Below are positions 4,790 through 63,832 of a stretch of DNA of 64,000 bases, piece after piece (positions within the stretch are counted from its first letter, which is position 1; every line of letters starts with the position of its first letter). The notes under the pieces were generated by a model. The model saw only the letters and a list, made by a program, of their open reading frames with translations. It was not told the DNA's origin and made no database searches. The stretch lies in the NCBI GenBank assembly GCA_027604505.1, contig JADIIX010000015.1, positions 62,001 through 126,000 on the forward strand, read 5' to 3'. This DNA comes from Gonapodya sp. JEL0774. Lineage: Eukaryota. The position numbers were made by a program, and so were the translations under genes.

Positions 4790-7154
4790 TCACGACTCCT
4801 TGTTGACCCCTGCCCTGTCGTCGCAGAACAGGTCCGTATCATAGAGCAACAACAGCGGTTGTATCACTCCGATGCTACCGTTCGAAAAAAGAAAACAAAA
4901 AAGAGGTTCAACGAATATATACGAGCGTGAGATCATGTTTTCCCGACCCACCCCGTTACGGGCGTTTTAAAAGTTCAAAGAATACACGAGCGTGAGATCA
5001 TGTTCTCACGACCCAACCCTGTTACGGGTTACGGGCATTTCACCCCTCCTTTGGAACCCCCACCTCCCCCTTACCCTCCCCACCCCCCTCGCGCTGACAC
5101 CACAGACCGACCGTACTCACAGTTTGATCATGATGAAACTGACCTGCGACGACGTGTGACTCGTGGGGCGCCGCGCGATGGCCTCGTACATGGTATTGAG
5201 AATTTCGGGCATCCAGCAGCTAAACGAGCCCACGAGGGGGTGTCGCAAGTAAGAGATCCAACAAAACAAATCAAACCAAAAAAACACATGAAAACAAAAG
5301 TGGGTCCCGGCACACGTCACTGCCGCCACCGCACCGATCCGCGCGATAAAATTTCACAAGGAACCGCCACCCAAACTCACACCACGAATGTAATCGCCAC
5401 ATGGTTCCACGCCCTGGCCAGCTGCCTCTCCTTGTTCTTGTCTCTCCTCTGTTTCGGCCCAAAGGGGTCCCTCTTGATTTCGTCCTGGAGCCTGGCGCGG
5501 TCGTCTCGTTGGGCCCGGAACCGAATGGCCGTGGAGCTCAACAGGATGGCGAGAGTGGCGCCCACCATGCCGAGGAGGGAGACGGCGGTGCAGAAGATGT
5601 CGAGGGGGTGGGAGTCCCAGCTGTGGGGGTGGGGTTGGGGCGATGGGGGGGCGGAGGGGAAGGGAAAGGTGACGGTGGGTCGTGGGGTGGAAGAGGTGGG
5701 TGAGATGGGCGATGGGTATGCGCAGGGTGAGAAGGACGGTTCTTTGTGCACTCACTACCTGAACTGACACGACAGCCCACTGGGCGACAACACGTCTACA
5801 CGCATCCAAACACAAGGCAAACACGCATCGTGAAAAATCTCACAAATCTGTTTTTTCGATACCGCTGAACGTGCACTCACATCCCCGCCACAAGTACCCG
5901 ATCCCCACGACCGTCGAAAAGCCGTACCCGCCGAAAAACACGCCGATAGCGGTGCGGCGGGACATGCCGCAGTAGCCGCGGCCTGAGGCGGCGGTGGTGG
6001 CTGTGGGTGGGGGCTTTTTTTTGTTTTGGTTCCGGAGGTTCGACAGGCAGACACGCGAGCGCACGCGCACGTGCACGGGGCGATAAGAAAAAATAAAAGA
6101 AAGAGAGAGAGAGAGGGACGCGGTGAACCTCTGATCACCGACGCTTCGACGGGCGTTCGATACCAAACACGCGGACGGGACGTGGACCCGTATTATTGCT
6201 CACCTTACCCGCCCCCTGCCCCTTACCGTCACCGTCGCCGGTCCCGACGCCGATCCCCTCGAACAGGGAGCAGTACCTCTCCACGGCCAGCTGGGCGTAT
6301 CCCAGGATCGACCCGCCCCACGGTACGATTGACGAAACGGCGAGGATCTGGCAGTTGATGGAGGTGAGGAGGGGGCCGCTGGGGGAGGTGGAGGTGGAAG
6401 CCAAGTAGGGGCCGCCAAAGAGGGTGGCGGTGCGGAGGAGCGTGCGGACGAGGAGGGCGAGGAGGTTGGCCTTTGGGAAGATGTAGGGGTAGAGGTGTTG
6501 GGGGGGGGGGGAGGTGGGTGGGGTGGAACGGGGTTTCGGGCCCGCGGGGAAGGAAGATGGGGATGTGAGCACGACGGGTGCAGAGACAGGACACACAGAG
6601 ACACGACGACGTACGGAAATACACGTCGCGGTGATGATGACTTGTATTTCGATGACGCGCTTGCGAATATTCTGTGGGTGGGGGGGTGGGTAGGGTGAGT
6701 GTGGCAAGTATCGTGTGATGTGTGTGGTGTGTTGGTGATTGTGGGTTCATCAGTTGGGGTAGTTGCCGGTACAGGCAGCGATGGTGGACAAAGTTGAGAC
6801 CAAGAAATATTCTCGTTGGGGGGGGCGGGGGGTTTGAGGCCTCACCCTGATCATTGCGACAAAGTATACGAGGACGATGGCGTGTGCGACAGAGCCCTGA
6901 GGGGGGTGTGGACAACCGTCCGCCAGGCAATTGATTTCATTTGAGTGATAGTTCCGCAGGTACATATATATAGAGAGTGCCGTTGACACCACCACCACCA
7001 GCAGCACAACTCGTGTGTGCGATATGCTCACCATGGCACAGACCACGAGATCGATCAAGGTGACCATGACTTCAGATTGGGAGAGTAGGTGAGGGAAGTC
7101 GGGTGCGTAGGAGTCGTCGGAGGTTGGTTGGGAGGTGTTGAAGGCGTCAGACAT
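4790..7154 (-). CDS. Class A (rhodopsin-like) 7TM GPCR with Lys at 7.43; type-2-opsin-like protein, 9 exons, ~346 aa
   Basis: Predicted exons 7154-7032, 6896-6846, 6671-6615, 6470-6227 (alternative donor 6209), 5982-5881, 5795-5756, 5620-5381, 5219-5121, 4874-4790. All are GT-AG and phase-compatible. Seven hydrophobic segments; Cys exactly 25 residues before the R of ERY; ECL2 YVLSPSGLSC; TM6 TFVVCWMPE; TM7 SFIMIKLIGVIQPLLLLY. Confidence 0.85.
4921..5028. repeat. Imperfect ~43-bp direct duplication inside the last intron of the GPCR gene
   Basis: acgagcgtgagatcatgttttcccgacccaccccgttacggg (from 4921) versus acgagcgtgagatcatgttctcacgacccaaccctgttacggg (from 4986). Confidence 0.85.
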
Positions 7155-8737
7155 TGGGGAAGGAAGTTTATTTGGTGGGAGTAAGGAGTGGGGTTGGGCG
7201 GGAGATGGAATGGGGCGGGAGTGGGGGGAAGGGTTGATAAGGAAATGGAGTGTTGGGGTGTTGGGAGCGGAATGGATGAGGGATGTGTATTCAAGTAAGT
7301 TGAGCGGAGCGATGTGCTGGTAAAGGCCTTCAATACAGGAGTGAATCTGGATACAGTGAAGGAATGAAGGAGTGAAGGATCCATTTGCGGTGTCCTGGTA
7401 GGTGATGAGCGGATGCACCTTGACGGGTCCTTGAGTGGTCCTTGTCCCTTGGTGCCTGCGTCCTGAATGAGCACCACACGCCGGCCACCACACACACGTC
7501 ATACTCTGGGGAACACCAGAATGGCATTTGGCAAAGAGAGGAAAAGGACATGGACCCGGAGAAAAAGCAAATTAAAATAATTGTGGGGGTGAATGAAAGA
7601 GAGGTGAGGGGCAGGAATGAGAGCGGGACGTGTGCGGAAACGAGGAAGGAAGCAAAGGTTGGAATGTGCTGATTGGGCAGAAAGGGAACAAAAAAAGATG
7701 TGGGATTAAGACATTGGAATGGGAGTGCAAGAGAAAGAAATACAAGGATGACTCGGGTGGAGAAGGATGAAAGGCCAAATGAATTATACAGGGATTGGGT
7801 GTGCTGTCGTGATCAGTCGGCCAAAGTTCCTCCCTGCCCTACACACTGGCGGTTTGGAGCTGCTAAATAGAATGGTCGCGCGACTGATGGCCATAATGTA
7901 TAGACGGATAGCGATGCTGATGCTAGCACCTGACGTTAGTATATCATTGCCGTAACGTATTTGAAAGTGTGGAGAGTCCTTCTGAACCAGAAATCGCCTA
8001 TATCTGTATCTGAACCATTAAGTGGATAAATTGAACTAAATGGGTGTTTACTTGAGCAAAAATGGATATTTTCTGGCCCAAGCTCCACGGGGTTCAAAAT
8101 GGGGGCAAGACTGGCAGACGTGATCACCGCGGGTGCGGGTGCACGCGAGGTTGTCGAGCAGCACTTTGACCAGCCAGCAGACCGTTCCCATTCCCCATCG
8201 ATTGAGCCATTCCACACGCAGGTGAGCGTGGCCCATCAAGTGCGCAGTCGCCCATCATCGCCCTCTTCCCCTCTCGCTCCTGTGTCGCCCACTCTCCGCG
8301 TTCCCAACCCACTCAACAATGCCCGGACAACCCAGTCCATCCGTAAACGCGACAAACGCTCTCAAAGGGGTCCACAAATAATTGATTTGGACTCCATCTC
8401 ATCTGAATGGCAGGACGGAAACATGGACGGGTTCAAAAGCGGGGCGGGTTGACGGTGTGGAGCGTGGTTGCAAATAATGGACCTTTCGAGTTTGTCTCTG
8501 CATTCGCCACCCCTCTGTCGCTTCCTTGTTCCCATGCCCGCTCAAACCTCGACAATAAATCGAGCTGTCTTTGCCCTTGTTTTTTTTTTTGGTCTGTTTT
8601 TGGTGTCTTTCCTGCTGACTGCTGACGGGCCACCTCCTTCCACATCCGACACACCCCCTCCCCGTGGATGACACCTCCCCTTCGTTTGGCCCCCTTGTAG
8701 CACGGGCCTCTTTTGTCCACAGAAAGGAGCAAAATAT

Positions 8738-11700
8738 ATGGCGCACCAGCAGCAGCAACCAGGCGCCCCCGCGCACCCAACGCTCACACCTACACCCGCA
8801 TCCCAACAACCCGCAGCCACCACACACGCACACGCACACACCCAACCACAACCACAACCACAACCACAACCGACCCAGCACATGACCCAGGCACAACTCC
8901 ACCAACAGGCCCAGACTCAAATCGCCCTGCACCAACACCTGGCAAACATATTCTCCCAGCAGGGACACGCTCTCCAAGCTCAAGCTCAGGCTCAGGCTCA
9001 GGCTCAAGCCGCACAAAGTCAAGGGCAACCCCACTCCCACCTCCACTCGCACATGCAACAAATGCCCCAACCTCCCCACCAGCCCTACCCCCACCAGCCA
9101 ACCCAGCCCCAACCGCCATCGTACGCCCACCTCCCCCACCCACCTTACTACCCCGCTTACCCACCCCACCACCACCAGCACCCTGGCCCCGGCCCCGACC
9201 CGGGCCCCCTCCTCTCCCCCGGCGGCACCCATTACCCCCAGCAACACCCCGTGCCCATGCCCCTCCCCGTGCCCATGCAACACCAACCTCAGTCTCAGAC
9301 CTCACCCCAAGGCGCACCCGCTCACACCGGTCCTGGCGGCGGCGTCGCACCGGGCCAACCGTACGGAGCACACTACGCCCACCCACACCCGCACTCGATC
9401 CCGCACCAAATACCGTACCAGCACCAACTCCAGCACCAGCACCAGTACCAGATGCACGCGCAGTATGGGATCGAGCAGCACGGTGAGTGGGGCAGGGGAT
9501 GGGTTGGGGGGGGTTGGAGGGGAACGGGGCAGTTCGGGGTGGTGTTCAGGGGTCGGATACGAATCTAGTGCACGTGAGCGGCCGTCAACCCACACATCCT
9601 CTTTTCGTTCTCCTTCCCTCCCCCCCCTTCTACTCCCACCAGCGACCGCCCCCTTACCTGCACCCCCCACCACTTCCCGCTCCAGAAAACGCCCCGCCCC
9701 CACCTCCAACTCCTCCACGTCCTCGTCGGCAAAACGCGGGACGGCCAAGAAGGCAAGGGGAGACGACGGGGCCGGTGCCGGTGCCGCCGCTGGTTTTGGT
9801 ACCGGTGCAGGTGCAGGTGCCGGTGCGGGTGCGGTTGAGACAATACGTGTAGAGCACGGCGCGGGGCAGGGGAGGGTCAGGGCCCGCGTGGGCGTGGAGA
9901 GGGCCCGGGTGGGCGACGGGGTTGGTGGTGGGACGGGGACGGGGACCGCGCTTCACGGCGCCACTGGCCACGACCACAGCGGGTCCCTCCCCCCTGCCCC
10001 CGCCCCCGCCCCCGGCCCCTCCGTGACGGCGCACGCGCTTGCAGCCCCCGACCCCGACCCCGACGCCTTCGACCCGGCCGACCTGGACGTACTCGACCCG
10101 GACCCCTCTGACGACGACGACGACGACCCCGACGAGTTCCAAGACGCGGGCGGGGCGTCCGAGGACGATTCGGACGTGTACGAGGAAGGAGGGTACGATG
10201 AGAACGGGAGGCGGAGGCGGAGGCGGAACGGCGGGGGTGGGGGCGGCGGATCGGCGAGGCGGAGACCCGGCGGCGTGGGTGGGGGAGGTGGGGGGGCGGG
10301 CGGCGGCGGCCCGTCCAGTTCGCGCCGGCGCGCGGCCGCCACCGCGGCCCGACGGCTGCTCTCCTCGTCCCACCCCACGATCCCCCGTCCCGTGTTTTCC
10401 GACGGCTTGGACGCCATGAACCCCCGCGCACCCGGGCCGGCCAAGGCCCCCGACGATGCGGCGAGGTGGTTCGTGAAACTTGACGAGGGGAATTCCCCGT
10501 ATGGGAGGTGGTGTGGGTTGGTGGCCGATGCGGTGAGGGGCGAGGGGGGTGGGTGGGAGCCCGAAGCGGGGGAGGGGGAGGGGGTTGTGGGGCTAAAGAG
10601 TTTCAGGGAGATGGAGGAAGTGTTGGGGAGGTTGAGAGTGGAGAGTGAGTATGGGTGTGGGCTGTCGTAGGGGGTCGTCGGGGTGCGGGTTTGGGGAGGG
10701 ATGGGGGTGGGGCGGAGCGCGCGTTCCTGCTGTCACGGAATACGAGACAGACGAATGCGTACTTGGTCACGGTGTCCGTGTAGTGACGAGGCAGGCAGTT
10801 TGATCGCCAGGTGTCGGTGGTGCATCACAGCTTTGGTGCCACAGTTTTGCCCCGTCACCGTCCACACCCCTCCCACTACCATCTCATGCACATTCCCTCT
10901 TTCTCCCCCCAACCCCTCTCCAGACGGCCCCCGCGTCGGCGGCCGCAACCGACCCCGCCTCGACCCCTATACACTCGACACCGGCACGCCCCCCCCGCCC
11001 GTCCCCTCGTTCAACCCCCGCCCGTCCCGCTCCACCGCGCACGCCTCCTCCTCTGCCACAACCCTGTCCCTCTCGTACGGTTCCTCCTCGGGCAAGGCCG
11101 GCGGCCCTGGGGGCCGGCGGGCACCCAGTGAGATGCCTGCCCTGGACGGGTTGCCGCAAGGGTACAGCTTGTGGATGTTGAAGAAGCCCTTGGGGCCGCG
11201 TGGAGCGGGGAGGGGAGGAAGCGGGGCTGAGGAAGAGGGGAGGGGGAAGAAGGGGAAGGGGAAGGGGAAGAAGGGGGGCGCTGGTGGAGCGGTTGTTGCA
11301 GGGGCTGCAGGGGTGGGGGGGGATGGCCAAGCGCAGGCGCAGGTGGGGAGCGGGGTAGGTGCTGGGGTAGCGGCAGGTCCTGGTGGCTTGGGCGTTAGTG
11401 GGGATGGGGAGCAGGCGGGAGTGGCGGGAGTGGCGGGAGTGGAGGGCGCTGCGGCTGTGAGTGCGAGTGGAGGCCCGACGGTTCCGGTGAGGGCCGGTGC
11501 GGCGGCGCCGCCGGTGCCTCATCAGCCGGGTCAGCAGTTTAGGAGTGATGTGTTCTTGTACGGTGGGTAGTGGGATGGGGGGACGGGGAAGGTGTTCTGG
11601 CGGGTAGGCGGTGCCGGTTTTGAGGTGGTTTGTTCGTGTGGAATTTGCATGGGCTGATGTGACTTTTATTTCGAATTCCAACGTAACGCAACGTACCAAA

Positions 11701-12626
11701 CACCACAAACTGAACGTCGCAACTACAACGAAACGAACGTCACATTTAAAACTCGGAACTGCACTGCGTATTTCCAACATGGGACTCGGCGTCCCACCTA
11801 TTCCACTCCTTGTCTAGGCCACCCCTCTGGTCGTCGATTCCGTTCCGCCGGTGAATTCGCGATCCACGTCATGTGGCTCTACCTGAGCGCCGTCGAAAAA
11901 TCCCGTCACGAGGCTGCGTTGCGAGCCCGGCTTTCTCTCCCCCCCGACGCCCCGATCCCTGACGCCGAGACAGACAAGGATCCGTGGCAACCCGACCACG
12001 CCAAATGCGCGTGCGTGTGCTGCGTGCCGTGGGTCGCGGAGATGGAGCGTGAGCGAGGCGGCGGTGTGAGTGGCGGGAGTGGCGGGCTGGTGGGTGGTGA
12101 CGGAGCGCGCAGCAGGCTCGGTATGCAAGGGAGGGGTCGAGGGTTCCCCAAAGGGGTCAAGGTTGAAGGGGCGGGGATGGTTCCGGTTGTGGTGGAGGCG
12201 GTGGGGTTGGGGATGGGGAAGAGGAGGGGGAGTAAGAGGGTGGTGATCAAAGAGAGGGGCGTGTTTGAACACAGGGATGTAAATGAGGGGGATGAGAAAG
12301 AGCAGGTGGGTTTGGGGGGGGCGGGGGTCCAGGGGGGTTGCGATGTTGTTGCGAGTGTGTGAGAGCCATGGTGTAACGTGCCCCTTTCTTGTTCACGCGT
12401 TCCCACCAACGCATGGTACACGGTTGTTCAACCTCCACCACCCGTCCACTTGGGTGTCCCACGTCTTTACCCTCTCTCCACCACTCCGACGTCTTTGCCT
12501 CTGGCGACCATGTCGCACCCATCCATCATCCCTCACATGCGTATTTTTTGCGTGCAGGCCGTCCGGCAAAGGAGGGCGAAAGTTATGCGGTATTTGGGAC
12601 TCTGTATGCCTGTAGAAGAGATTTGA
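8738..12626 (+). CDS. Low-complexity (Q/H/P/G-rich) nuclear protein with a Clr2 (cryptic loci regulator 2) N-terminal-type domain, about 5 exons
   Basis: Splicing across introns ~9483-9641, ~10646-10923, ~11564-11817 and ~12306-12558 gives LPQGYSLW...RSDVFLYG|HPSGRRFRSAGEFAIHVMWL...CACVCC, the LP.GY.L / D.YLYGHP...FRS..EF..H..WL / CxCxxC signature of fungal Clr2-like proteins. Start codon uncertain. Confidence 0.75.
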
Positions 12627-15050: not shown

Positions 15051-17387
15051 ATGTCCTGGCTTTTCACGAAACCACCACCTAACCCTCCTGCGCGGCCTCC
15101 ACCACCGATATATCCCTTTTTTACAAGGACAGAAGATACGGAAGGAGAGAGATTGTTGGGATTCTACAGAGTTGAGGGGGTAATAGGTGAGGAATCGGCA
15201 GGCTTGAGCTTTCAAGACGAATTCAGAAGGGATCTTGAGATAGTTGTGGTTGTGCTTGCACGGATTTTCGGTGCGAATCGGGTTAATTTGCTGGAACCAT
15301 GATCGAATGAGGTACTGGCGAGACTGTGGGGGACTTTACTCGATCTGACTTCCTCCCACTCGTAGCTACCACTCCACACTCCACTGTCTCCCGTGCAGTT
15401 CATCTCCCTACATCGACGCCTGTTGCTATAAAGGCAGTGGCAAAGTCCTCCTTGAATCCCAGAGACTTTCTCTGGAGCAGCAAAAAACACAAATGGCTGT
15501 ACAAGGAGGAAGCAATTTTTCGCGTTTTGGGGCTCGGTGAGGAGTGGGATGATTCGAAGGGTGAGTCTTAATGAGTTCCGTTTGGTTTAGTGCGCATGTT
15601 TCACGAGGTGACCGTCCGCACTCTTAACCTCCCCCGTCTTCCCATTCCTCCAGGCTGGTCCCCACCCACTTACTCTTTGCCCTCTCGAGCTTCCTTGTCA
15701 ACCATATCTACACTTGGACGGAGGCCGAACCGTCGACATCCGAACCTGCCCCCCTTTCTCACCACCTTCGCCACCACACGCCATATCAATATGGTCTTTG
15801 CATTAGCAAGCACCGACTTGTTTGACGTGGTGGATGGCAATGCAATCGTGTCGACTAGACAACAGGAACAGGGCTTTCAGATTGGAATGGACGAAGGGTT
15901 TGCGGCAGAGGTTGTTGCCAGGCTCTGTAGTGTCGTATCGTGGTGCTGGAAGAGAGGAGTTGTTCATCGAGGTGAGTATGGTACAAAAAATGACCTTCAA
16001 AGACTAACCTTGAAGCTTATGTATCACAGATATCAAACTGGAGAATATACTCTTCCTCCATCCCCGCCCCACCCCTCCCGTTCAGCCGGAGTCTGCAGCC
16101 CCTTTTCTTTCTTCCCTATTCTTGTCCGACTTTGGTCTAGCCGCGCTCATCCCTTCCACTGTCGTTCCACATACTTCAAAAGCCCAGTCGGTAACCGAGC
16201 TGTCCCAAACGACCCTTTCCTTTATCACACCTTACGCTGGACGACTTGCCCCATCTGCTTATGATACTCCCCCACCGAGCCCTACCGGTGACCTGTCTGA
16301 GGAGGCGATGCTTCGCGGTGCAGTTGGATCTCCTCACTTTGCGGCTCCCGAGGTTGTGCATTCCCCGATGGGGTATACAAAACAAGTGGATGCGTGGAGT
16401 ATAGGCGTAGTTGCTTACATGTGTGTGGGAGGTGGATACTGCTGGCCTTTCGGGGAACTCTCGGAGAAGCAATTGGTGCCGGAGGAGTCAAAATTGGCGC
16501 AAGGGGCCGAGTGAGTTGATCTGTTTGCGTTGGCCGAACTCAGTCTACATGGCCATTTTTACTATTTTCCCACTTATCCGCCAAGCTTCACCCACCCTTC
16601 CCTCTCCTCCACCTCACCCAACTTCCAACGGTTCGTAAACTCCCTTTTGCACCCCGACCCTTCCCTTCGTCTTACTCCTCGCGCCGCTCTGGATCATGAC
16701 TGGATTCGCACGATGGTCGAGGACGATGTTCGCATGGACTTGATTGGCTGGTCGGAGGGCCGTGACCCTGATGACTGGGACGGAGATGACGAGGAGACTG
16801 ACAGGGTGTCGGATGTTGGGGTTTTAGATGATATGACGGGATTGGTGAGAAGGAGAAGTAGGGGCGAAGGTGTTTCCAGCATTGGTGGGTTTGGTCGTGA
16901 GCGAAGACCCGTCAAGGACACTTGCTAATGGCATCTTATAGAGCTTCCACGGCCCTTGGTTTCCAAGCGACGCATAATCTCTGGGCAGCACCCTGGAGCG
17001 TGGAGACTTGCTGTTGGGTTCCTCCTGGTGGGAATCCTTCTGGAGTTGCTCATAGTCATTATGGATTTCCTGGACCTTGGGTCTGGAAATCCAGGTGACG
17101 AGGGTCAGGAATTTTGGAAGGCGATTAGGGCGAGTAGGATCGCTCTTGTGTTGGGAGGATTAGTATGCATTGTTCTGGGAGTGCTGTGAACTCTCTTCTC
17201 CTGCTAATGAATGTTCCTCTCCTTGACACAGTTCGTGCTCGCAATTGGGGCCACTTTTTTTGTATTATCGTTTCGGTCCTCCCGGCGTATGTTTTCCCGC
17301 GTGTCCTTGGATTGCAGAGGAGTGCAGTCAAGCGAGGCGGATGCTCCTTTGCTGGGCAGGAATGGGGACAGATACGGAGGTTTCTAA
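15051..17387 (+). CDS. CAMK-like Ser/Thr protein kinase with a degenerate Gly-rich loop and two predicted C-terminal TM helices
   Basis: Motifs VAIK, HR|DIKLEN, DFG, GSPHFAAPE, DAWSIGV and PSLRLTPRAALDHDW. Introns 16897-16941 and 17163-17231 join two hydrophobic segments; stop at 17385-17387. The unspliced form ends at 16928. Confidence 0.8.
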
Positions 17388-27845: not shown

Positions 27846-30108
27846 TCAATCAAAAAAATTCCACGCCTTTATCGCTCCGGAAGCAACGGTTGCTCTCCGG
27901 CAAACTCCGAAAATCCTGCCTTCGTCACAGCCTACAGATGTGATTCCTTCTGTCCAACCACTTTTGTCCGTTGCCTCGTCTGTCTGCAAGTCTCTCACTA
28001 CCGACAATTGCTTTCCAACACACGGATCCACGTTTTTGACAGAAAAGCTTTTTTTCTTGCCCTGTCTCCATGGAACTTCAGGCAGAACTCTCACATGGCA
28101 GGTGCCATCAAGGCCCCCAGTCACCAACTTCCGCAAATTGGGGTTGGGGTAGACAGACGCGACTCGCGATGTATGCGAAGGGAATGTGGAGATATGATAT
28201 AGAGACCGAGGGTCCCGCCACTTATCACGTTTGTCCGCGTCGCGAAAAGCATACACCCTCACATTGCCATCCGCGAATCCCGACACAACATAACCCTTGC
28301 GGTAAGCAATCGAACTCATCACTGCACTTCGGCTGGAAGAGCCCAAATCGTCATCCGCAAGCGGATCAGAAACCGGACGGAATGGAAGCTCCGGACATGT
28401 TTCGGTTGTTTCGGTTTTGTCCCCATCCTCGTAATCAGACTCGTCTGAGTCATACCAGTCTGCAACAAGTCCGCTTGACTTCATTTTCCCTCTGGGTATG
28501 GATGTCGGTGTGTAGTAATTAGTTCTGGTGCATTTGCCCCACATGTCAAGTTCAAGTTGTTGCACTCCAGGTTGCCAGCCACCCGCGTGATGTGGGATAG
28601 CGAATGCAATAGTCAATATATATGATCCCTCGTCCAGTTGTAGGTCGGCTTCGAGGGAGACGGTGACTGGTTCCCATGCCACTGCGGACTTGAGCCTTTG
28701 TGCGACTTGCAAAGAAGCTGTTTCCCCGCTTACTTCCCAAATGCGAAAAACTTTCAACGAAAAGTCCTCAGCACACGCAACAACAAGGTGCTCGCACACG
28801 GCAACGGAAACAATAGGCTTGCCACCTTCACTCAAGGTATCCACACTGTAGTGACAATATAATACCCCTTCCGAACCATCGGCGAGGACACGAAAAATGG
28901 CGACTGATCCGTCAGCGTAGCCAACTGCGACATTGATAGGCGCCGAAAGGTCTTGCAAACCATCTCTCAGTGATCGAATCCGAGTCCGATAATTCTCATC
29001 GATGGAGAGCGCTGTTGCTTGTGTCTTTCTATCACCACCAAATGACCCCGCACATTCTCCAGTCCAGCTGTCCCATACCATGATTTTGGAAGGCGGATTA
29101 TACATTGTTGAGGCAGTGAAGAGTAGGTCGGATGTGAACGCTAGGAGCGGGTTGGACGGTTTGTAGAAGAGTGCGACACCGCTTGAGTAATTTGCCGATA
29201 AGGGGGATTTTTGAGAAGGCTCAGACCACCCCGAGCCACTCAAGCCATCAGTGCCGAGGTCTTCGGCAGACTCCGCCACGCTGTCAGAGTAGCCTTCTAA
29301 TCCAGTTTCCTGCATCATTTCCTCCATTGTCGGACCTTGGTGAACCGACGATAAAAGTGCAGGCACTAGCTTTACAACAGTTGCGTTTCCGGTCTCCCAA
29401 TTGTGTTGCCTAAGGGTAATGTGACGTTAGCCAGGTTGACTTGCAAACCGGAACTCCGCAAAACTGGCCTCACAACTCGTAAAGCAACTTCCACTCGACC
29501 CTTCGTCTAACCAATTCAGCAGGCTTCGGACGAACAGCAGCCGTAGAGTTCCCGTTGTTGCCCGTTTGTTGAGGTTTCGGCGTGTGCGCAGCGACATCTG
29601 GCGTGTAAGTTTGCTCGTCTTGCCTCCCAGGGAGAACGAAGCGGGCAAAAAAAAGACGTCTGAAGACGAGATTCGGGATAGGAGAGAGGCACGAGGGTCC
29701 GGAGTGTGAGAGATGCAGGTAGGTACGAGAAGGAATGGGATGTGCGTGGGGACATGGGCGAGATATGGGTGAGAAAACGTACAAATGTGAGCACGTACAG
29801 TACATCTCACCTCCAGAGGAGTCTATCGACGGAGAGGGAATTCCACCGCCGTGAAAGCTTTGAGGCAGTGAGCAGATCCTTGACAGAAAGATAACTAAAG
29901 ATCTGGCGTATCAAATATCATTGCTCGATTGCACAAGAAGTTACCCAGGATAGAGAGGAAGCTGACATGGGCTTACCAAGAGGTTTGTCTCATCACCAAA
30001 TATTCTCGTGAAGTCAGTTGCACTGATGTGTTTGCCCGAGCCACCGCTCTGTCCATTGGGTGAAGTACTTTGCTGGGATGAGAGACGCAATCGTGGTTTC
30101 TTGTTCAT
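27846..30108 (-). CDS. F-box/WD40-repeat protein
   Basis: F-box exon QIFSYLSVKDLLTASKLSRRWNSLSVDRLLW (~29810-29905). WD-like repeats in the large exon (IMVWD, GYADGSVAIF, SGFADGNVRVY, LVTGGLDGTCHV, AIKAWNF). Confidence 0.85.
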
Positions 30109-30533: not shown

Positions 30534-33816
<3,283 letters not shown>

Positions 33817-42129: not shown

Positions 42130-43655
42130 ATGCATGGCCACTGGACCGTGGGGATTTTTGCCGCCGGCGTGGTTGTTGGCATGACAGCAGCTGCAGTCGG
42201 CGGTAAGTGAAACCTCACGGATGTTTGCAGGAATCGAATCTCTTTGACTTCAGCACTTTGCTTGACGAACTTCAGGATCCTTCAGTCACGCATTTACACC
42301 ACAGTCCAGCCGCGCAGAAGGGACGATTCTTCCCAATTCACCTTTGCGATCTCCTGCAACCGAGCCACCCCCTTCCCTCTCGTCCCGCACCACCCCCACT
42401 GCCAATCGCTCCTTTCCCTTCTCTATTCTCGCGGACACCGCGGATCCCCTGGCAAATGCCTTGAGGATTCTAGAGCATGGAAATCCCACAAGTCCTGCCG
42501 ACCAAGTACTTGCAAAATCTGCATTTGTCCTGGCGTATGATAGGAGGACAAGGAATCCTTTGTGGGTTCGTTGACCATATTACTGTTGAGCTACGACTGT
42601 GAATTCAATTAGGCTATTTTGTTCTTTGCTGCGGCACAGGTTGCCCAGCGATTCTCCAAAAATCACGACTTCTCAGCCTTGACGTCCTCTGATTCTTCGT
42701 CTTCTTCACTTACAAAACAAACCCGACCACTCACTTTCCGCCCTGACCCACTCATTCCAGCCCTTTTCCGTGCCCCAGCTGCTTTTTACTCGTCCTCGGG
42801 GTTTGATCGGGGACACATGATCCCGTACGCAGACGTGGCAAAAGGCGTTCAAGGAGCCGGTTTGGATGACGTGGCCGTGAAGAAGTGCACAGAGGAGACT
42901 TTTTTGTGTGGGTGGGCTTGGTAGAAGTTTTATTATGAGAGGTGACAATATCACCTCCGACATGGTACAGTGTCCAACATCTCCCCACAACATCCACCGT
43001 TCAACCGTCACGTGTGGTCTTCCGTGGAACGGTTCGTGCGCCGTGCCGCGGAGGCGTACGAGGACTTGATAGTTGTGACTGGGCCTGCATGGGTTCCGGA
43101 GTGGAACGAGGAGAAGCAGAAGTGGAGGGTGGAGGTTGGTGGTGTGTGTAGTACTTTGAACGCAGCGACTCACCTGGTTCTCGCATCTAGTACGACGTCT
43201 TGGGTCCACCACATTCACTCTCTATCGATTCGCCAACATCGGTGTCAACTCTTCCTCTCATACATGTTCCTTCTCACTTTTTTAAGTGCCTCCTCGGCAC
43301 CCCCGTGCGCCACCCCTCTTCTTCATCCAGTTCTCGAACTCCTCTTCACCTTGCCTGCTTTTTCGTTCCCCACGTTCCCAACCTCCCCGCTGGCGCGCGT
43401 CTCGACGATTACCGCGTAGATCTTGAGACTGTTCAGCGAGTTACGGGGATAGAGCTGTTTCCGGGCCTGAGTCGCTCAGAAGGACATACACCTGTCGAGT
43501 TCGTGGACATGTGCTCATCCGGGCTGCTAGGGTGTGGCGTGCACGTGGGGTCGAGCACGGAGGGCAAAAGGTCGAGGAGACGGACCGATGTTGGCGGTGG
43601 AGGGGCAGACACAAATAGGAGGGATGGCGAACAGAAAATAATTGAAATCGAATAA
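42130..43655 (+). CDS. DNA/RNA non-specific endonuclease (EndoG/Nuc1 family)
   Basis: FVLAYDRRTRNPLW|V, SSGFDRGHMIP, TF.LSNISPQHPPFNRHVWSSVE, VVTGP, VPSHFFK. Hydrophobic N-terminus (MHGHWTVGIFAAGVVVG). Confidence 0.9.
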
Positions 43656-45805: not shown

Positions 45806-47589
45806 CTATCTGTTTGCTTCTTCAGCACCAATCAAAGGTGTGTTCTCGTCTGGTTCCGTTCCAACTCCATCACCAGATGTTTCCGGGCGACTCTCCTCAT
45901 CACCCTCATTGCGAACTTGAACAACCTCTTCTGGAGGCTTGATGTGATCAAAAGACCAAAGAAGAAGGAGATCTGGCGTGAATTTTCAATTTGGCATTTG
46001 CAAACTAAAGTTCAGTTTGCAAGAGCACAACAAGAAGCGACACACCCCTCACCATACACAATCTTCAATCCACCACAAGCCCAAAAAGCGACATCAAACC
46101 AGCCTCTAACACTGAGCCATCCAGTTGCTGCAGGTCCAAGTGAGCCTGCAACAGAACGCACGATGTTTGTGGCGCCGAGGACCGCAGTTCTTGCAGTGGG
46201 AGGAACGATAGAGGACACATAGGCAGTACGTGGGGCAACATCCTTCCGTCGGAAAGCATAATCGATGGTAGATGCAACAATTCAGTCATTCAAGATGCCA
46301 ATCTCACCATCTGAGAAATCGAGAATCGTGCAAACAGAACCGTGACTGCCAACGGCAGATTGGGAACGGTCGAGGGGAGCAGCGCCATGAGCACATTTGA
46401 AGGTAGATGAGTGAATACCACTGTAGTTGAACACGGGCATAAAGTTGGAAAGTCGTGCAGTGTGACAAATGGCTCAAAAGCTCTGCAACCAACTTGTTCT
46501 CACAAGACCGATTCTTCGCGCAACATGTGGTGCCACCAGCGTACTCAAACCAGCAGCCACCGTGGAAGCTGAGAGTAGAGGTGCCAAGTGAGACAAGTCG
46601 AGATTGAATCGGAGCCGAAACCAGTAAGTGAGTAAAGAACCGGTCACCAGAGATCCAGCAAAAGCGTCCAGCGAGAATAAAAGAGATAGGTGGAAAAGAG
46701 TATGAAGAAAAGAAGCGGGAATAGTAGAATCTCTCGGAGCTGCTTGAATGAGTTCCGCCTTCCTTTCGCGCTCTACTTCAACGTGTTCACTCAAGCCACA
46801 GAAGAGTGCAGCGAGGAGCAACCCAAGTGCTGCATAGGTGAGTGCAGTGAGTCGGTACCCCTCAAGAGTTGTAAGACCGAGCCATTTAGGGACAATGTCC
46901 ACTACTAATCCAGAACATACACCACCAACAGCGGATGACAAATATGCGGAGGATTGGGACCTTGTAGAGAATCACAATAATAATCTTGAATCGTGTTCTG
47001 ATGACGAGTATGTAAGTACGAACCAAGCGAAAACCATGGTCCGTTCCGCAGGAACCGCAATAAATCCCGCCAATGCAGAGGATTCTAGTGCCATAAATGG
47101 ACCAACCTCCATGCCAGACGGACTTATCACGCCTGGCAATATGGCGCACGAATCAGAAACGGCAATTGACACTCCTCCAGGAAAGGAAAGATCCATGCAC
47201 TCACCAAAGATTCCCGCGACTGCGAGAATAGAGAATCGTCTTGCTCCCGAGAAAGGCGCCCAAGCGTATACAGCACCACCCACAGTCATGAGCAGCGCTC
47301 CAAGAACAAGCATTCGTCGTCGCCCGATGTAGTCAGCGTTCCACGTCACGATTAGGGAAAACAAGGCATCTCCCGCAAGCGTTAAGCTCAAAAGCCAACC
47401 AATCTCGAGGTCCGTGAGGCCAAGCTCGGCAAGATAAAGTGCGAGTGGTATACCGATAAGACCGTAAGCAAAGAGTCTCACGCATCGTGTAAGAAGAAGA
47501 AGGACACCATCACGAGGGAGGGTATATAGAGTATCCAGCCCAAGCACTGTCGAAAACGACGGGCTTCCTTCTTGTGCCTGACTGTTCAT
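45806..47589 (-). CDS. Major facilitator superfamily transporter
   Basis: RCVRLFAYG, NADYIGRRRMLVLG (motif A), GVISPSGMEVGPF, FSLDAFAGSL, ARRIGLVRT. C-terminal ENTPLI is dileucine-like; TAG at 45806-45808. Confidence 0.9.
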
Positions 47590-48718
47590 CGATGCGAAGG
47601 GGTTCACAAACCGTGCCACAACCAGCCTACATAGTCACCACGGCATAGTTTCGTTCTGGGCTGTGAAGAACCCAATCTGACAAACGATTGTTTTCCAATT
47701 GTTCACGGCCGAGATAAAAGTTGCGGAGAAGAAGTCTCCTGAAGCCACCGAACGATCGCGTATCCCCTCAAGCAAGTCAACGAACGGGGCACATCCGGTC
47801 CCGCGGACAAAGTTGAATGAATGGGCATTGGGTTCGCAGTGCGACTCTAGCCTTTCACCCAGTATTATGTCACTCTCTCGCAATCCCTCCACCTCGCTGA
47901 AGTTGAGACCTTGCGTTGTTCAGGGGCTCCAGATCCTCACTGTCACACCATGTCCGAACGACGAAGGGATGCTCCTGCTTCGACAAGTCCTGGTTCTCCT
48001 CGTTCTGATTGTCTTGCCACAGGTCTCCGGAACACCCCACCGTCGAGGCAATCTCCAAGGAATTCGGGTGGGCGTGGGGCAAGTTCCAGATGAAGGGGGA
48101 GGTTTCTGATGCAATGGATCTGCTAGACTACTGGTGAGTCAGATATATTTTCTGCATATTCTCTACAAAGCCTGTTATTGTTTTTGATCTCCACTCGTGT
48201 GCTTTGCCAAGTGTCCTTCTGCACACGCCCTTCCTGTGTGATTTGTGCAACAGCCCTGGCGAGGCACATATATAGGGTAAGAGATGTCTTGTGCAGGTGG
48301 CCAAGCTAGACTGGGCTAGATTTGGGGAATGTTCTAGCGTAGTTTAGTGCCGTTGATCTCCTTTGGGCTGCCATTATTTTGCGAGAGTGGGCTCCTCACG
48401 CCAAGCTCGTCCTATCACGGATATACAGTTATTAATTTAAGTAGCTCTTGGGGTGGAGGCCTGATGGGATATATTGTGTCATTCGTAAGCGGTAGTCACC
48501 CAGCCGATTACAGAAGATCATTTTAGGTTATTGTTGACATATGCGTAGGGTACAAATAATAGTATGTCAGAAATGTAAAGGTGAGAGTTTTTATACCAAC
48601 ATAATCAAAAACGATCCCGATGATCCACAACGATTGTCCGGCGGGCACAAACCTTGCGCGATTCTCTCCACTACTTTCATGGTTTATGGGTACAAGGTTG
48701 GGCTGTCTGGTCCTCTCC

Positions 48719-55486: not shown

Positions 55487-55530
55487 TTGAATGATATTTT
55501 TTGTGCCTTTTCATCGCTTTGAGTTCCGGA

Positions 55531-56904
55531 ATGGAAGACTTCGTCGAAAGTGCATACGGCAGCCAATCTGAATTGCTCCGATTCTGCCGTGAGCTGCCTA
55601 AAATCGTGAGCATCGTGAGCGTGAGCTCATTCTGCATTCAGTTCCACTGGGGCGACATTTGCCAAATCCGTATCGTCCCACATCAGGAACTGCATGCACA
55701 CCTCAATGGCTCCGCTAGCCCTGAAATCATGAGCTCTCTGCGTGACTTGAAGAAGGAATCACATCCTCACCTCCAAAGTGTCGCATTGCCTGAGATACAA
55801 CCCAATTTTGTGATAACGGACTTCTTCCCATTTTTCGACTTTATCTACCAGCTGACTGATGATGAGGAGAGTGTACGATACGTTGCTCGTCGTGTGATAG
55901 ATGAATTTGCGAAAGATGGTGTTCGTTATCTCGAACTACGTTCAACACCACGAGCTAATGAAAAATCTGGCATGACCAAGGAATCGTATGTTCGCGCAAT
56001 ACTGGACGTACTATGCGATTCGAGGGCGGAGCATATCACTTTATCTCATGGAACGGATCGGACTCCGCATTTGATTGTACGCTTTATCCCATCCATTGAT
56101 CGCCGTTCAACCAAATCCGCTGCTTTGGACACTGCTGAGCTTGCTCTACGCCTCCGCGATGATCCGAACCGTGGAGAGTACATTGTTGGTGTTGATGTGT
56201 GCGGGGACCCAACACGTGGGGATTTCGCAAACGTTCAACCGGCAATAGAGTTGCTCAATGCAGCGAGACCTCCCCTGCCTACCACCATTCATTGCGGAGA
56301 AGTTGCTCGTGCAGATGGGGAAGCTACTGTCATGCTGGCCAGTAATCCTGGAAGGATTGGGCACGCAACTTTTCTCAGCTCGGATGAAAGGAAAGAAATC
56401 GTTCGAAAACGCCTGCCGAGTGAGTATGGTGAGTACCAGTGTGCTCTTCAATTCGTTTTTATTCATTGCAATCTGTGAGCAGTCGAAATATGTATGACAT
56501 CTAATGTTATTTGCAAGGTGGGTGACTGGTGGGGGTCAGTAGGAGTGGAACATGTCACGCTGATTGGTTCATGCCAGACTGTCAATTCTTATCCTGAACA
56601 TCACATTCGGGAGTATTTAGCAGAAGGACATCCAGTTGTCCTTTGTGTAAGTGCCGTAATGCAATTGGGAATTGCCCCAACTTACATCCAACCCTCATCA
56701 AAATACCAGACGGACGACTCAGGTATCTTTGGTTGCAGTTTATCACAGGAGTATTCTTTGGCAGCGCAGCATTTCCGATTGGGAAAACGAGAACTCTTTC
56801 AATTGTCAAGAAATTCGATAGAATCCATCTTCGGAGATGAGAATGTGAAGGAAAACTTGCGGCAGTACTGGGACACGTGGGCAGAAACATGTCTGGAAGA
56901 CTAG
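55531..56904 (+). CDS. ADAL: Adenosine deaminase-like protein (ADAL/MAPDA-type N6-methyl-AMP deaminase family)
   Basis: LPKI|ELHAHLNGS, DGVRYLELRSTPR, VGVDVCGDP, TIHCGE, RIGHATF, EICMTSN, TDDSGIF. HLNGS and the E.C.TSN context are ADAL-type. Confidence 0.88.
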
Positions 56905-58634: not shown

Positions 58635-59383
58635 ATGAGCCAGCCATGGCGCCGAAACAATCTACGCCCTCGCGAACGCTTCGCTTCAGAACTGGACGTT
58701 GACATCTGTGGATGTGGATTCAAGGTTATTCAAAATCACGACACTGCCAGCGCGCTCTGGGATGCAAGTGTTGCTCTCGCGTCGCACGTCCTGTCCCTTC
58801 CTCCAGAGACTTTTCATGGAAGAACTGTCATTGAAATAGGAGCTGGGGTGACTTGAACAACTGCACCACCCCGTTTCGCACCCACTGACTCATCGCCCAT
58901 CGATGCCATCATTCCCCGTAGTGCGCTTTACCAGGAATCGCGATCGCCAAATATTGCAAACCGGAGCGAGTGATCCTAACTGACCTTGCAGATGAAATTT
59001 CGCTTTTGCAGGCGAATGTTTGCGCGAACGGACTCGGACCGGACTCTGTTTCAAAAGTCGAAGTAATTGAATACTTCTGGGGTACGGAGCCGACGTGGCT
59101 TGAAGCGGCGCCTGATTACGTGCTTGCGGCTGATGTTGTTTATGAAATTCAGCACTTCCAAGAGTTGGTAAAGGCCCTTTCAGACCTCTCTAGAGACAAG
59201 GAGGAACAGCAGACGATCATTATTATGGCAATGGAACATCGGTGGAAGGACGTGGAGGAGGAGTTCTGGCGCCTGATGGCAAGCGCTGGTTTCGTTCACA
59301 AGACAGTGGAGCGTCGGCATCTGGACCCGCAGTTTGTGCCCCTTGAAATAGATGTATATGTAATTCGAAGAAAAGGTGTGTAA
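58635..59383 (+). CDS. Seven-beta-strand protein-lysine methyltransferase (METTL21/Methyltransf_16 family)
   Basis: TASALWDASVALA, VIEIGAG|CALPGI, VILTDL, YFWG, YVLAADVVY. Confidence 0.88.
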
Positions 59384-59384
59384 A

Positions 59385-60830
59385 ATGCTCTCAACTCACT
59401 TCGTAGCGTGCCACATAAACTCGCCTCACCAACCTCACCCGCGCACTCGCCCACCCGCCCGCCATTTAGGAAAGCTTAACACTGGCCAGACTCTCATGCC
59501 TGTATCGGTCATGTCCCCATCGCCGTTTCTGGCTTTCATACAACAATATCGTCTCCCGCCTTCCTCCCCGGCACGGTTGACGACACACAATTGGATGGAC
59601 TCTAAGTCACCCATGTCGGGCCAGTACGGGATACCCGTCTCCGAGATGTCACAGTTTTGGCGACTCTACGCTGATCATTGTCGCAATCATCGGGAAGTGC
59701 CCCTCTACCTCACAGAGAACATCCAGAGCTCGGTTGTGCGACCCTTTTTCGATGTCGACTTCCCCTTCCCTGCAGATTACGAAGTACTCAGTGAATCATC
59801 GGGCCTGAGTTACGATGAAGTGACCGGCGTCATTGTTGAAGCTGCCCGTGAAGCTATGGCAAAGTTGTTGGACTTGGACTTGGATGACAGACATGTGACA
59901 ACCTGCCGGGTTACACGCCGGTTATCTGCACAACATAAACTCCATCTTCACTTCCCATTATTGGTGACCGCTGCTGCGTCGGCCAAAGTGGCCGCGCTGC
60001 ACTTACGCCGAATTTTGGAACAAAAGTTTTTGAAGCTTGCAGACCAAGGGGAAAGCAAGCCTCCCAAGCTTGATTGGGAGACCATCGTGGATGATCAAGT
60101 TTATGCATCTTCTCTGCGTCTTTTTGGCTCTCTCAAATCAGGAGACAACAGCGGCCTCTCCAAGTATGGTCTATTGACGTTGAATTATCGCGACGGCCAT
60201 CTCGAAGGAATAGCCATCCGTCATGCTGGAGAGATGACTGCTGAAGAATTTTCGGAGCTTTCTATTGTTCCAAGTCCGAATCAACAGTCTGCTGTGGAAT
60301 GTGTTCTGGCCCAGGAGAGATACGAATCTCTGAATGATCATAAAGTGTCTCGTACAATGGCCCTCGCGAGGACAGAGAATGATGTGGAGAGTGGTGTTGT
60401 GAGGATTGACGGAGTTTCCCGACAGGCTGCAAGGGTGGTGCTTGACCACTTGGTCTCCGCGAGTTCGAATGGGGAGCTTCATCTTGAGGATCCGCGTCCC
60501 TCTCGTATTATTGGGGCAAAACGTGACCATTTTGGCAAAGATATTGTTGTTGCGCTAATCCAAAGAAGTTGCCCGTTTGACAAAAGATCGCACGCAGATC
60601 ACATGCTGGAGATTGTTTACGTTCTCTACACCCCAAATGGTTGTAGTGTACATTGTCGGGCTTGTGACATTGACAAATTTGGACAAGATTGCAACGTGCA
60701 ACAAGCGGCGATCGGTGCAAAGCGTTTGGTGTTGCCCAAACACTTGCTCGAGTTGCTTGACAAGAGGCATATCGAAGGATATGTGGATAGAATGGAAAAA
60801 TGGAAGACCATGAGAATGGCAAATAATTAG
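59385..60830 (+). CDS. Intronless archaeo-eukaryotic primase (AEP) of NCLDV/PrimPol-like type with a C-terminal Zn ribbon
   Basis: THNWM..GQYGIP...FWRLY, LYLTEN, motif I PFFDVD, motif II KLHLHFP, motif III IVDDQVY, SLRLFGSLK, and C-terminal CPF..RSH...C..C. Start at 59385 or 59496. Confidence 0.8.
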   Translation: MLSTHFVACHINSPHQPHPRTRPPARHLGKLNTGQTLMPVSVMSPSPFLAFIQQYRLPPSSPARLTTHNWMDSKSPMSGQYGIPVSEMSQFWRLYADHCRNHREVPLYLTENIQSSVVRPFFDVDFPFPADYEVLSESSGLSYDEVTGVIVEAAREAMAKLLDLDLDDRHVTTCRVTRRLSAQHKLHLHFPLLVTAAASAKVAALHLRRILEQKFLKLADQGESKPPKLDWETIVDDQVYASSLRLFGSLKSGDNSGLSKYGLLTLNYRDGHLEGIAIRHAGEMTAEEFSELSIVPSPNQQSAVECVLAQERYESLNDHKVSRTMALARTENDVESGVVRIDGVSRQAARVVLDHLVSASSNGELHLEDPRPSRIIGAKRDHFGKDIVVALIQRSCPFDKRSHADHMLEIVYVLYTPNGCSVHCRACDIDKFGQDCNVQQAAIGAKRLVLPKHLLELLDKRHIEGYVDRMEKWKTMRMANN

Positions 60831-60951: not shown

Positions 60952-63832
60952 ATGTCTATCGCTATTCGAGAAACCTTCGCCCGAGCCAAGACTGAAGGTT
61001 CGTTTATTCTCACGATACGAATCGCTCGTTTTGTCTGGCTTTTAGGCCTGCGATGCATGCTCACTGCTTGGTATATTATCGTTCCGAAAATGCTTCCACC
61101 TTCACTTCAAAAGGCCGCCCTGTATTTGTCGCCTTCATCACGGCGGGATATCCTAGTCCTGATGAAACTGTCGATCTCCTCCTTGCGATGGAGCGCGGTG
61201 GGGCTGACATTATTGAGTTAGGTATGAACAGACATTTCGTTCCATCATCAATGTTTCGTAGCTGGATCAGTGGACCACTGCCCCTTTCCTTTGCTTTTGC
61301 CCTGTTCAGGTATACCATTTTCCGACCCCATCGCTGATGGCCCAGTTATACAGGAAGCGAGCCACGTCAGTTGAACTGGAGGGTTTTTGAATCAAACCGG
61401 GTAGACATCTTATTTTCCTATCCAATCCCAAAAGATTGCTCTTCAGCACAACGTTTGCATCAGCGACTGTCTTTCGATGGTGGATTCGGCTCGCGCTCGT
61501 GGGTTAAGAGCGCCTGTCCTGTTCATGGGGTACTACAATCCCCTGCTCATCTACGGGGAGAGTAAGATCATGGACGACTGCGTGAAGGCCGGCGTAAATG
61601 GTTTCATTGTTGTGGATTTACCACCGGAGGAGGCGAAAAGGTTCACTCAATTATGTAGGCAGAGCAGGTGAGTGACAGTTGGCTTCGAGCAAAAGCTGGG
61701 GCATTTTCGATTTTTGACGTACGCACCATAACCATACTCTCGTAAAGCCTTTCCTATGTTCCTCTCATTGCACCATCTACCACCGATGCCCGGGTCCAGC
61801 ACCTGGTGACGGTTGCAGACACCTTCATCTACGTTGTGTCCACGATGGGTGTCACCGGCGCCCGTGGTGCTGTAGACTCAAATCTTGCTTCTCTCGTGGC
61901 ACGAATTCGGAAACATACCGATGTGTACCTTGCGGTTGGCTTCGGCGTCAGCAATCGAGAGCAGTTTGTGCAGGTTGGCAACGATGCTGATGGCGTGGTT
62001 ATCGGGAGCCAGATTATCAAGACAGTTAAGGCGGAATCCACAAAAGAGGCGCGTGCAGCAAAGGTGGAAGCGTTTTGTGGTGACGTGACTGGGAAAAATG
62101 AAGGTATTTCTCAACCACTCCTACCCGGAGGCAAGGACCATCCGACCAGTCTGTCTTTTCTTTCAGTCAGAACAAACGGTAAACATGCCGCAGCAAAAGA
62201 AGCCAAGGCAGCGCAGCCGCCATCTGCTGTCACTGTGACCCAGATTCCTCCACCGCAACATGCTTTGGCTGATCGGTTCGGCCAGTTTGGTGGTCAGTAC
62301 GCACCGGAAGCGTTGGTGGATTGCCTGGACGAGTTGGAAAAGGTTCATATAAATTTAATGGACCTGTTTGGCGAATTCCTGATACCGTGAATTACTTTTG
62401 ATAAAGGCGTACGTGGCGGCATCGAATGACCCAGCTTTCTGGGCCGAGTTCGAGTCCTACTACGACTACATTGGTCGTCCATCTCGCCTGCACGAAGCAT
62501 CACGTTTGACAGAATACGCAGGAGGTGCACGCATCTGGCTCAAGCGGGAGGACCTGAACCACACTGGATCCCACAAGATCAACAATGCCATCGGGCAAGC
62601 GCTTCTTGCCAAGCGGTTGGGCAAAAAGCGGATTATTGCGGAGACGGGCGCTGGGCAGCACGGCGTTGCGACTGCCACCATTTGCGCCAAACTTGGACTC
62701 AAGTGCATCATCTACATGGGCGAAGAAGATGTGCGAAGACAAGCTCTCAACGTCTTCAGAATCCGACTTTTGGGTGCCGAAGTTGTTCCCGTCTCGTCGG
62801 GGAGCAAGACACTTAAGGACGCAGTCAACGAGGCGATGAGGGACTGGGTCACCAACGTCCAAAACACGCACTACATCATTGGTTCCGCGATCGGACCTCA
62901 TCCCTTTCCAACCATTGTGCGAGATTTCCAGTCGGTCATAGGCAAGGAAGCTAGAAAACAAATGCTGGAGAAGGCGGGAAAGCTGCCAGACATAGTCATG
63001 GCATGTGTTGGAGGTGGTTCAAACGCGATCGGTCTCTTCTATCCTTTTGTGCAAGATAAAAGCGTACGGATTATTGGAGTTGAAGCTGGTGGAGATGGTG
63101 TGGATACCGGAAGACATTCAGCCACGCTCGCGAAGGGAACACCCGGTGTACTCCACGGCACCCGGACGTACTTGCTTCAAGACGCGAATGGGCAGATCAT
63201 CGAGACGCACAGTATCAGCGCCGTGAGTTTGCTAGTTGTACCCGTAGCTGGATCTGGTGGAGACTTGAGTTTTATTTGGTTTACTCGACAGGGCCTCGAT
63301 TATCCTGGCGTCGGACCTGAGCACGCCTTCTTGAAAGATTCTGGGAGAGCCGAGTATGTAGCTGTTTCTGACAAGGAGTCGCTCATCGGGTTCAGGTTAG
63401 TCTGTGAGCTCGAAGGTGAGTTTCAGGATTTGGACGGAGGGCATGTTTCATGTAGTGAATTTCCTTGTAAACAATGCTTCGTACTCCCACCACCCCATAG
63501 GGATCATCCCCGCGCTTGAAACGGCTCACGCCTTCTACTACCTCCTCGAAATCGCCAAAACCCTCCCCAAAGACAAGGACATTCTCATCGCCGTCAGCGG
63601 ACGGGGTGACAAGGATGTTGTGTCGGTCGCAGAGGCGCTGCCAAAGTTTGGGTGAGTTTAGACGGCGCCGACGAATTTGTGTGCTCTCTGTTGTTTGTTT
63701 GTTGGGTTCGCTGGTTATGGAACGAAATGCTCAACGGTAGCCACGAAGTACTAAACGAGGTTTCGTTTTTGCTTTTATTCTAGTCCCCAAATTGGATGGG
63801 ACTTGAGATTCGAGGACCACAAGATGTACTGA
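60952..63832 (+). CDS. TRP5: Tryptophan synthase, fungal alpha-beta fusion, multi-exon
   Basis: Alpha: [39 protein letters not shown]. Beta: [67 protein letters not shown] at 63830-63832. Confidence 0.97.

Follow-up and report, generated by a model that had tools for sequence, protein, structure and literature searches.

A predicted class A receptor of the fungus Gonapodya sp. JEL0774 with a lysine at the opsin position, probably a chemoreceptor

Whether retinal-binding G protein-coupled receptors exist outside animals is a question raised by a gene on the minus strand of a 64,000-nucleotide stretch of contig JADIIX010000015.1 (hereafter the window) of Gonapodya sp. JEL0774, a fungus of early origin that lives in water and whose genus is described as a member of the Monoblepharidiales. 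The gene was originally predicted to encode an animal-type, opsin-like receptor with a lysine at position 7.43, the residue by which opsins are defined in the literature. If the product were a convergent pigment it would, once the lysine claimed for a Spizellomyces receptor is set aside, be the first genuine visual pigment of a type 2-like kind in a non-animal. It is in any event a cheap test case, which would reveal either a second origin of opsin-like vision or that Lys7.43 alone is not diagnostic of an opsin.

The proposed chain of nine minus-strand exons could be rebuilt. All eight introns (85-246 nt) have GT-AG borders and the exons, one of them only 40 nt long, join into a 352-aa frame without internal stop, as had been claimed. 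Exon 1 (7032-7154), whose donor at 7031 scores best locally, contains the start codon, the N-terminus with an N-glycosylation sequon at Asn6 and the first half of TM1 including Asp35 (1.39). TM1 continues in exon 2 (6846-6896) with His46 at 1.50, where the paralogue described below has Asn, and exon 3 (6615-6671) encodes ICL1 and the start of TM2. Whether Asp35 falls at 1.39 hinges on the junction of exons 1 and 2, at which the paralogue record is 5 residues shorter; a shorter exon 1 fitting this gap was tried and rejected, its donor scoring -5.8 versus 6.7. Exon 4 (6227-6470) encodes TM2 with Asn2.50, Arg2.57 and Arg2.61, ECL1, and TM3 with Cys3.25, Leu3.28, Trp3.36 and the ERY triplet (6281-6273), and is followed by exon 5 (5881-6000) with ICL2 and TM4, which has Tyr at 4.50. 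Exon 4 could alternatively end at 6209 and exon 5 begin at 5982; for intron 4 there is a choice of two donors and of two acceptors, and every combination of them is in frame. The 40-nt exon 6 (5756-5795) encodes the part of ECL2 with Cys208 and with Ser at the site equivalent to Glu181, and exon 7 (5381-5620) encodes TM5, ICL3 and the first half of TM6. The CWxP motif of TM6 with Glu6.51, ECL3 and TM7 as far as Lys324 (codon 5123-5125, position 7.43) are in exon 8 (5121-5219); exon 9 (4790-4874) adds the remainder of TM7 (Gln7.49, Pro7.50, Leu7.53), a short C-tail and the stop codon. The hydropathy profile of this spliced model has seven peaks, those of TM3, TM4 and TM6 being weaker. The predicted positions of the ERY triplet and of the lysine codon, the distance of 25 residues from Cys117 to Arg142 and that of 7 from Lys324 to Pro331 were all reproduced. 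Intron 8 contains a 38-nt direct repeat (4917-4954 and 4982-5019, 89% identical, 65 nt apart), each copy of which has a branch-point-like CTCAC word.

The warning that annotation might miss or split the gene proved justified. Exon 4 matches a single protein at 100%, HDU93_001929 (P0001) of the same strain, a 333-aa public model in which exon 1 is identical, intron 3 is kept, exon 6 is skipped and the end lies in TM6. Exons 6, 8 and 9, and hence the ECL2 Cys and the Lys, are missing from it: the model stops ahead of TM7, and therefore does not have the lysine. Its stop codon arises where exon 7 runs on into the intron-7 donor, and the truncation is explained by reading through a phase-2 GTGAG/GTAAG donor, which gives an in-frame stop. 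The same kind of read-through likely accounts for the end in TM6 of the paralogue HDU93_005893 (P0002) of strain JEL0774, whose public record stops at the same TM6 position; TM7 of P0002 is unannotated, the model probably running into a phase-2 intron common to both genes. The alignment of P0002 with the spliced model, over TM1-TM6, reaches 200 bits (118 of 291 residues identical, 41%), that with the public model 129 bits; in P0002 TM2 is free of any intron-3 insert and the exon-6 peptide is present. Comparison with the paralogue thus supports exons 1-7, the 40-nt exon included, whereas exons 8 and 9 have no homologue because the P0002 record ends in TM6. Judged by its sequence, the nine-exon gene is real and mis-annotated. 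As public models can lose TM7 in this way, surveys for the lysine in annotated proteomes may be incomplete.

The protein has few relatives in the collections searched. A HMMER (phmmer) scan of 1.84 billion representative proteins at a cut-off of E 0.001, with the partial public model as query, found two proteins only, P0001 and P0002, and word-index protein searches gave nothing beyond P0001, or P0001 and P0002; a homologue with TM7 was found in neither. Searches of PDB sequences returned only weak, unrelated matches. None of 276 candidate stretches in a metagenome scan held a receptor relative. One of 72 in a second metagenome scan (L001:4336-4413) was rejected as a chance match, since it overlaps the start of a bacterial ORF, which we take to be aconitase-like, on the opposite strand.

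The assignment to class A was sustained by the ERY motif, the pair of Cys3.25 and the ECL2 Cys, CWxP and Pro7.50 of the spliced model; ERY and the Cys pair are also present in P0002. Non-consensus sites are His1.50, Asn2.50, Tyr4.50 and QPxxL, while Asn1.50 and Asp2.50 are retained in the paralogue. In the ESM Atlas the clusters closest to each paralogue are mostly 7tm_1, with scores up to 0.92 and 0.94, and the best 10 family hits all belong to one clan, with shared-feature counts (119-147) below the 170 typical of same-family hits. Neither the public model, which matches nothing in Pfam, nor six exon pieces, nor the paralogue hit Pfam 7tm_1; all of these are partial sequences. The AlphaFold models of the two paralogues are poor (pLDDT 41.5 and 47.1) and without TM7; that of P0002 (TM1-6, low confidence, pLDDT 41.5) has six long helices. 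With this low-confidence model Foldseek listed 50 matches, all of which we take to be class A receptors, the best at E 0.013 and none at 0.001, with rhodopsin 27th among those listed. The P0001 model found no GPCR among 24 structure-search matches, and VIA-align returned helical bundles and receptors of mixed GPCR classes, with Z of at most 8.9 and no opsin among the matches listed, an uninformative outcome.

Krishnan 2012 (PMC3251606) gives as features of the fungal family a D/ERY motif, Cys in ECL1 and ECL2, Asp in TM2 and NP in TM7. The Gonapodya gene has D/ERY, both Cys residues and, counted by eye, the family spacing between TM6 and TM7, and its ECL2 and TM6-ECL3 regions resemble, again by eye, the sequences of that study. 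It has Asn2.50 and Gln-Pro, with Asp2.50 present in the paralogue; 3 of the 12 Krishnan members are also without NP, and accepted fungal Rhodopsin-family members likewise do not have Tyr7.53. On motifs and by-eye counts our verdict is that the product is a predicted divergent class A GPCR of the zoosporic-fungal group. The claim of an animal-type, opsin-like family was not upheld: the searches gave no match specific to opsins, and the closest resemblances (by eye) are to zoosporic-fungal class A receptors that have no such lysine. G-protein coupling is only assumed, because Tyr7.53 is replaced by Leu and Tyr5.58 appears, by eye, to be lost.

The original prediction pointed to Spizellomyces as a precedent. 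Ahrendt et al. 2017 (PMC5410147) called SPPG_00350T0L the sole fungal type 2 rhodopsin with the lysine, and obtained this sequence by adding one base to the genome. The JGI model SPPG_00350, given in the supplement of that paper, fits the unedited genome without a frameshift; it splices out a GT-AG intron of 65 nt within TM7, and has Ile at 7.43 and a spacing of 37. The edited SPPG_00350T0L reads through the intron, is 22 residues longer there and takes its K320 from the 3' end of the intron (PMC5410147). These two models suggest that the published Spizellomyces K320 lysine is a gene-model artefact, and the precedent is probably wrong, as in the unedited genome that lysine is intronic. The Gonapodya receptor, unlike the 2017 Spizellomyces case, offers an exonic, in-register Lys7.43. 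Galindo et al. 2022 searched with the Spizellomyces sequence and obtained two weak hits in G. prolifera, for which residue 7.43 is not reported; on the strength of the Spizellomyces claim the 2022 survey assigned a 'type II rhodopsin' to the ancestor of fungi. A 2025 survey found neither K296 nor E181 in the receptors of choanoflagellates and ichthyosporeans or in three representative ones of Holomycota, and concludes that K296 arose in stem animals. Our literature search, which covered few subscription journals, found no publication on a Gonapodya receptor with this lysine and none questioning the Spizellomyces model.

The lysine is at the opsin position, as claimed: Lys324 falls at 7.43 by two anchors, Trp6.48 plus 30 in the same exon and Pro7.50 minus 7. 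As Trp294 and Lys324 both lie in exon 8, 30 residues apart, the assignment to 7.43, with spacing of the 37 type, holds whatever the last junction does. In a by-eye comparison with 13 published zoosporic-fungal class A receptors (12 Rhodopsin-family sequences of Krishnan 2012, PMC3251606, and JGI SPPG_00350) the distance from 6.48 to 7.50, which is 37 in the Gonapodya gene, was 37 in 11 and 38 in 2; 6.48 is not Trp in two of these sequences and 7.50 is not Pro in two, and there the positions were placed by neighbouring motifs. Lys at 7.43 occurs in none of the 13 (S, S, S, Y, V, Y, C, Y, Y, H, V, A and I), so that it is not a common state. The two exons around the lysine were judged by several measures. 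Exon 8 begins with CWxP at the sole good acceptor of its interval, shares 9 of 18 ungapped positions at its start with SPPG_03814 (by eye, and a selected figure, being the best of 12), and is followed by donor 5120, which ranks first by score. The codon-position bias of the gene, taken in the model frame, amounts to 0.20 bits per codon in exon 8 and 0.19 in exon 9, scores which 0 of 1067 overlapping non-coding windows reached. Acceptor 4875 closes a 128-nt AG-free run (AG gaps of at least 126 nt number 18 of 3719 in the window), and AG-free runs of 98-141 nt precede the acceptors of five of the seven other introns too. It has the top pyrimidine content among the AGs from 5090 to 4400, and scores only -2.8, outside the top 8, with a C-rich acceptor matrix trained on introns 1-7. 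We consider it quite unlikely that the 3' end is mis-modelled, whether by other splicing, an end after exon 7 or 8 or a register off by one, or that the lysine is functionless drift. Such an error would be in keeping with a gene model predicted from sequence, with the shared TM6 end of both public models, the failure to find a TM7-bearing homologue, the poor last acceptor under one matrix and a weak GT that lies inside the exon at 5143, ahead of the Lys codon, but it has to be set against the opening of exon 8 with CWxP at the only good acceptor, the matches of that exon to a Spizellomyces receptor, a Trp-to-Lys distance independent of the last junction, coding bias in both last exons, and the phase-2 donor read-through, whose stop accounts for the truncated annotation.

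The residues around the lysine bear on whether it could hold retinal. With rhodopsin numbering (PMC10060157) placed by motif anchors, the pocket of the spliced model has Asp35 at 1.39, Arg86 at 2.57, Arg90 at 2.61, Leu120 at 3.28, Pro127 at 3.35, Trp128 at 3.36, Ser202 at the 181-equivalent site, Glu297 at 6.51, Phe320 at 7.39, Lys324 at 7.43, Gln330 at 7.49 and Leu334 at 7.53. Established counterion sites are 94, 113 and 181, and coral opsins use Glu292 and chloride (PMC12401545). No acid stands at 94 (Arg), 113 (Leu), 181 (Ser) or 292 (Phe) in the spliced model; UV and chloride-dependent opsins are described as exceptions to the acidic-counterion rule. Gly121(3.36) and Ala292(7.39), small residues that line the retinal pocket in rhodopsin (PMC10060157), are replaced by Trp128 and Phe320, and at these motif-anchored positions Trp3.36 and Phe7.39 crowd the pocket together with Arg2.57/2.61. 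The four non-acidic counterion sites and key pocket residues unlike those of rhodopsin again speak against the opsin-like family of the original prediction, and it is because of these two findings, on the counterion and on the small pocket residues, that we do not file the gene as an opsin. The paralogue P0002 keeps Arg2.57, Lys2.61, Leu3.28, Trp3.36 and Ser at 181, and for this reason the pocket residues look selected. Rhodopsin in which Gly121 is changed to Trp is reported to fail to bind retinal, a point that we do not count as evidence. Since Met44(1.39) borders the Schiff base in rhodopsin (PMC10060157), Asp35 would be well placed as a counterion, and Asp1.39 and Glu6.51 could be Schiff-base partners or a new counterion. 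Three basic residues and two bulky aromatics would nevertheless suit a diffusible ligand with a charge more than they would the protonated Schiff base of retinal.

A retinal pigment of either origin, convergent or ancestral, is in our opinion a minor but serious possibility. A convergent fungal photoreceptor, in which Lys324 would form the Schiff base with retinal and light would switch a G protein, seems unlikely. The base might be protonated, its counterion being Asp1.39, Glu6.51 or chloride, or else unprotonated, in a receptor that senses UV. This reading would agree with the exact 7.43 register by two anchors and with acids at 1.39 and 6.51, which line the Schiff-base/polyene region in rhodopsin numbering. 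There is also precedent for non-canonical counterions, as coral opsins manage without the canonical one by means of chloride, and one of them, which has Arg113, is a UV pigment (PMC12401545); a UV pigment needs no counterion. A carotenoid oxygenase that G. prolifera is reported to keep, together with its type 1 rhodopsin hit and its partial CyclOp, also speaks for a pigment; that it has only one of the three carotenoid-to-retinal enzymes speaks for the chemoreceptor. A convergent pigment is disfavoured by Trp3.36, Pro3.35 and Phe7.39 in place of Gly121, Gly120 and Ala292 of rhodopsin, by the two arginines, 2.57 and 2.61, that adjoin the Lys, and by the want of an acid at any of the four known counterion sites. 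If instead the lysine had been inherited from an ancestral fungal-animal opsin, opsins would be older than animals, which we hold to be very improbable. The literature offers this reading two points, that zoosporic-fungal class A receptors resemble opsins and have been inferred in the fungal ancestor, and that monoblepharids are described among the earliest-diverging chytrid orders. It would need many losses, because none of the 13 fungal relatives has the Lys, and it is further weakened by the non-animal receptors examined in the 2025 survey, which have neither K296 nor E181, by the low place of rhodopsin among the Foldseek matches listed, and by the high divergence of a protein with only one relative among the 1.84 billion representatives.

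The explanation which we regard as most likely, with a confidence only somewhat above even, is that the gene encodes a fungal class A GPCR in which Lys7.43 was likely gained independently, and which acts as a chemoreceptor for a charged, probably acidic, ligand. An independent origin of the lysine had been named in the original prediction as an alternative, and it is the better reading. In such a chemoreceptor Lys7.43 and the two arginines at 2.57 and 2.61, their charge offset by Asp1.39 and Glu6.51, would make up a polar network in a pocket between TM1, TM2 and TM7, which would bind the carboxylate or phosphate group of a diffusible ligand. Binding would shift TM6 through the CWxP switch, and this shift would release the ERY motif and activate a heterotrimeric G protein. 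The role in the cell might be, for example, chemosensing by zoospores or gametes.

The neighbouring genes in the window include no light or signalling gene cluster. Ordinary genes encode a gamma-tubulin complex component (3-500), two kinases (16014-16511 and 27849-29426), a WD40 protein (31837-33813), a non-specific endonuclease (42946-43416), an MFS transporter (46975-47634), an adenosine deaminase (55495-56475) and a lysine methyltransferase (58922-59380). A weak match to the Clr2 silencing protein (11658-12359, plus strand; PF16761, E 6e-5, below the cut-off) adjoins a GC-rich low-complexity region (8400-11800). On the plus strand at 59364-60827 a stop-free frame of 488 aa has an AEP primase-polymerase domain of the C962R type (PF23162, E 2e-14), possibly from a large DNA virus or a mobile element. 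It adjoins tryptophan synthase (61746-63516, plus strand), whose alpha and beta domains lie side by side on the same strand, which is the arrangement of the fused enzyme of fungi.

It is useful to compare the receptor with the systems it most resembles. Animal opsins, represented by bovine rhodopsin (PMC10060157), share with it Lys7.43, Cys3.25, ERY, Trp6.48/Pro6.50 and Pro7.50, but the fungal protein has no Glu at 113, 181, 94 or 292, has Trp3.36 for Gly121, Phe7.39 for Ala292, Asp1.39 for Met44 and Glu6.51 for Tyr268, has no Tyr7.53, and counts 30 rather than 31 residues from Trp to Lys. The coral ASO-II opsins (PMC12401545) likewise have the Lys without an acid at 94, 113 or 181; they differ in being nested within animal opsins, in having Glu292 and no ERY, and in that their pigments have been shown. 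SPPG_00350T0L belongs to the same receptor group, with Arg2.57 in both and a claimed Lys seven residues before the TM7 Pro, but its Lys needs a one-base edit and intron read-through, whereas the Gonapodya Lys is exonic in the unedited sequence. The receptors of Krishnan 2012 (for example SPPG_03814, SPPG_00617, AMAG_11340 and BDEG_04847) have in common with the gene, by eye, Cys3.25, the ECL2 Cys, ERY, a spacing of 37, a Tyr nine residues before the ECL2 Cys and no Tyr7.53; SPPG_03814 also resembles it, by eye, in CWxPE and in the pattern of ECL3. The gene departs from them in Lys7.43 (0 of 12 there), in Asn for Asp2.50, His for Asn1.50, Tyr for Trp4.50 and Gln for Asn7.49, in being without Asp7.35, and in a divergence so great that none of the pieces tested hit Pfam 7tm_1. 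The paralogue P0002 has the same residues at 2.57, 3.28, 3.36 and 181, and a basic one at 2.61.
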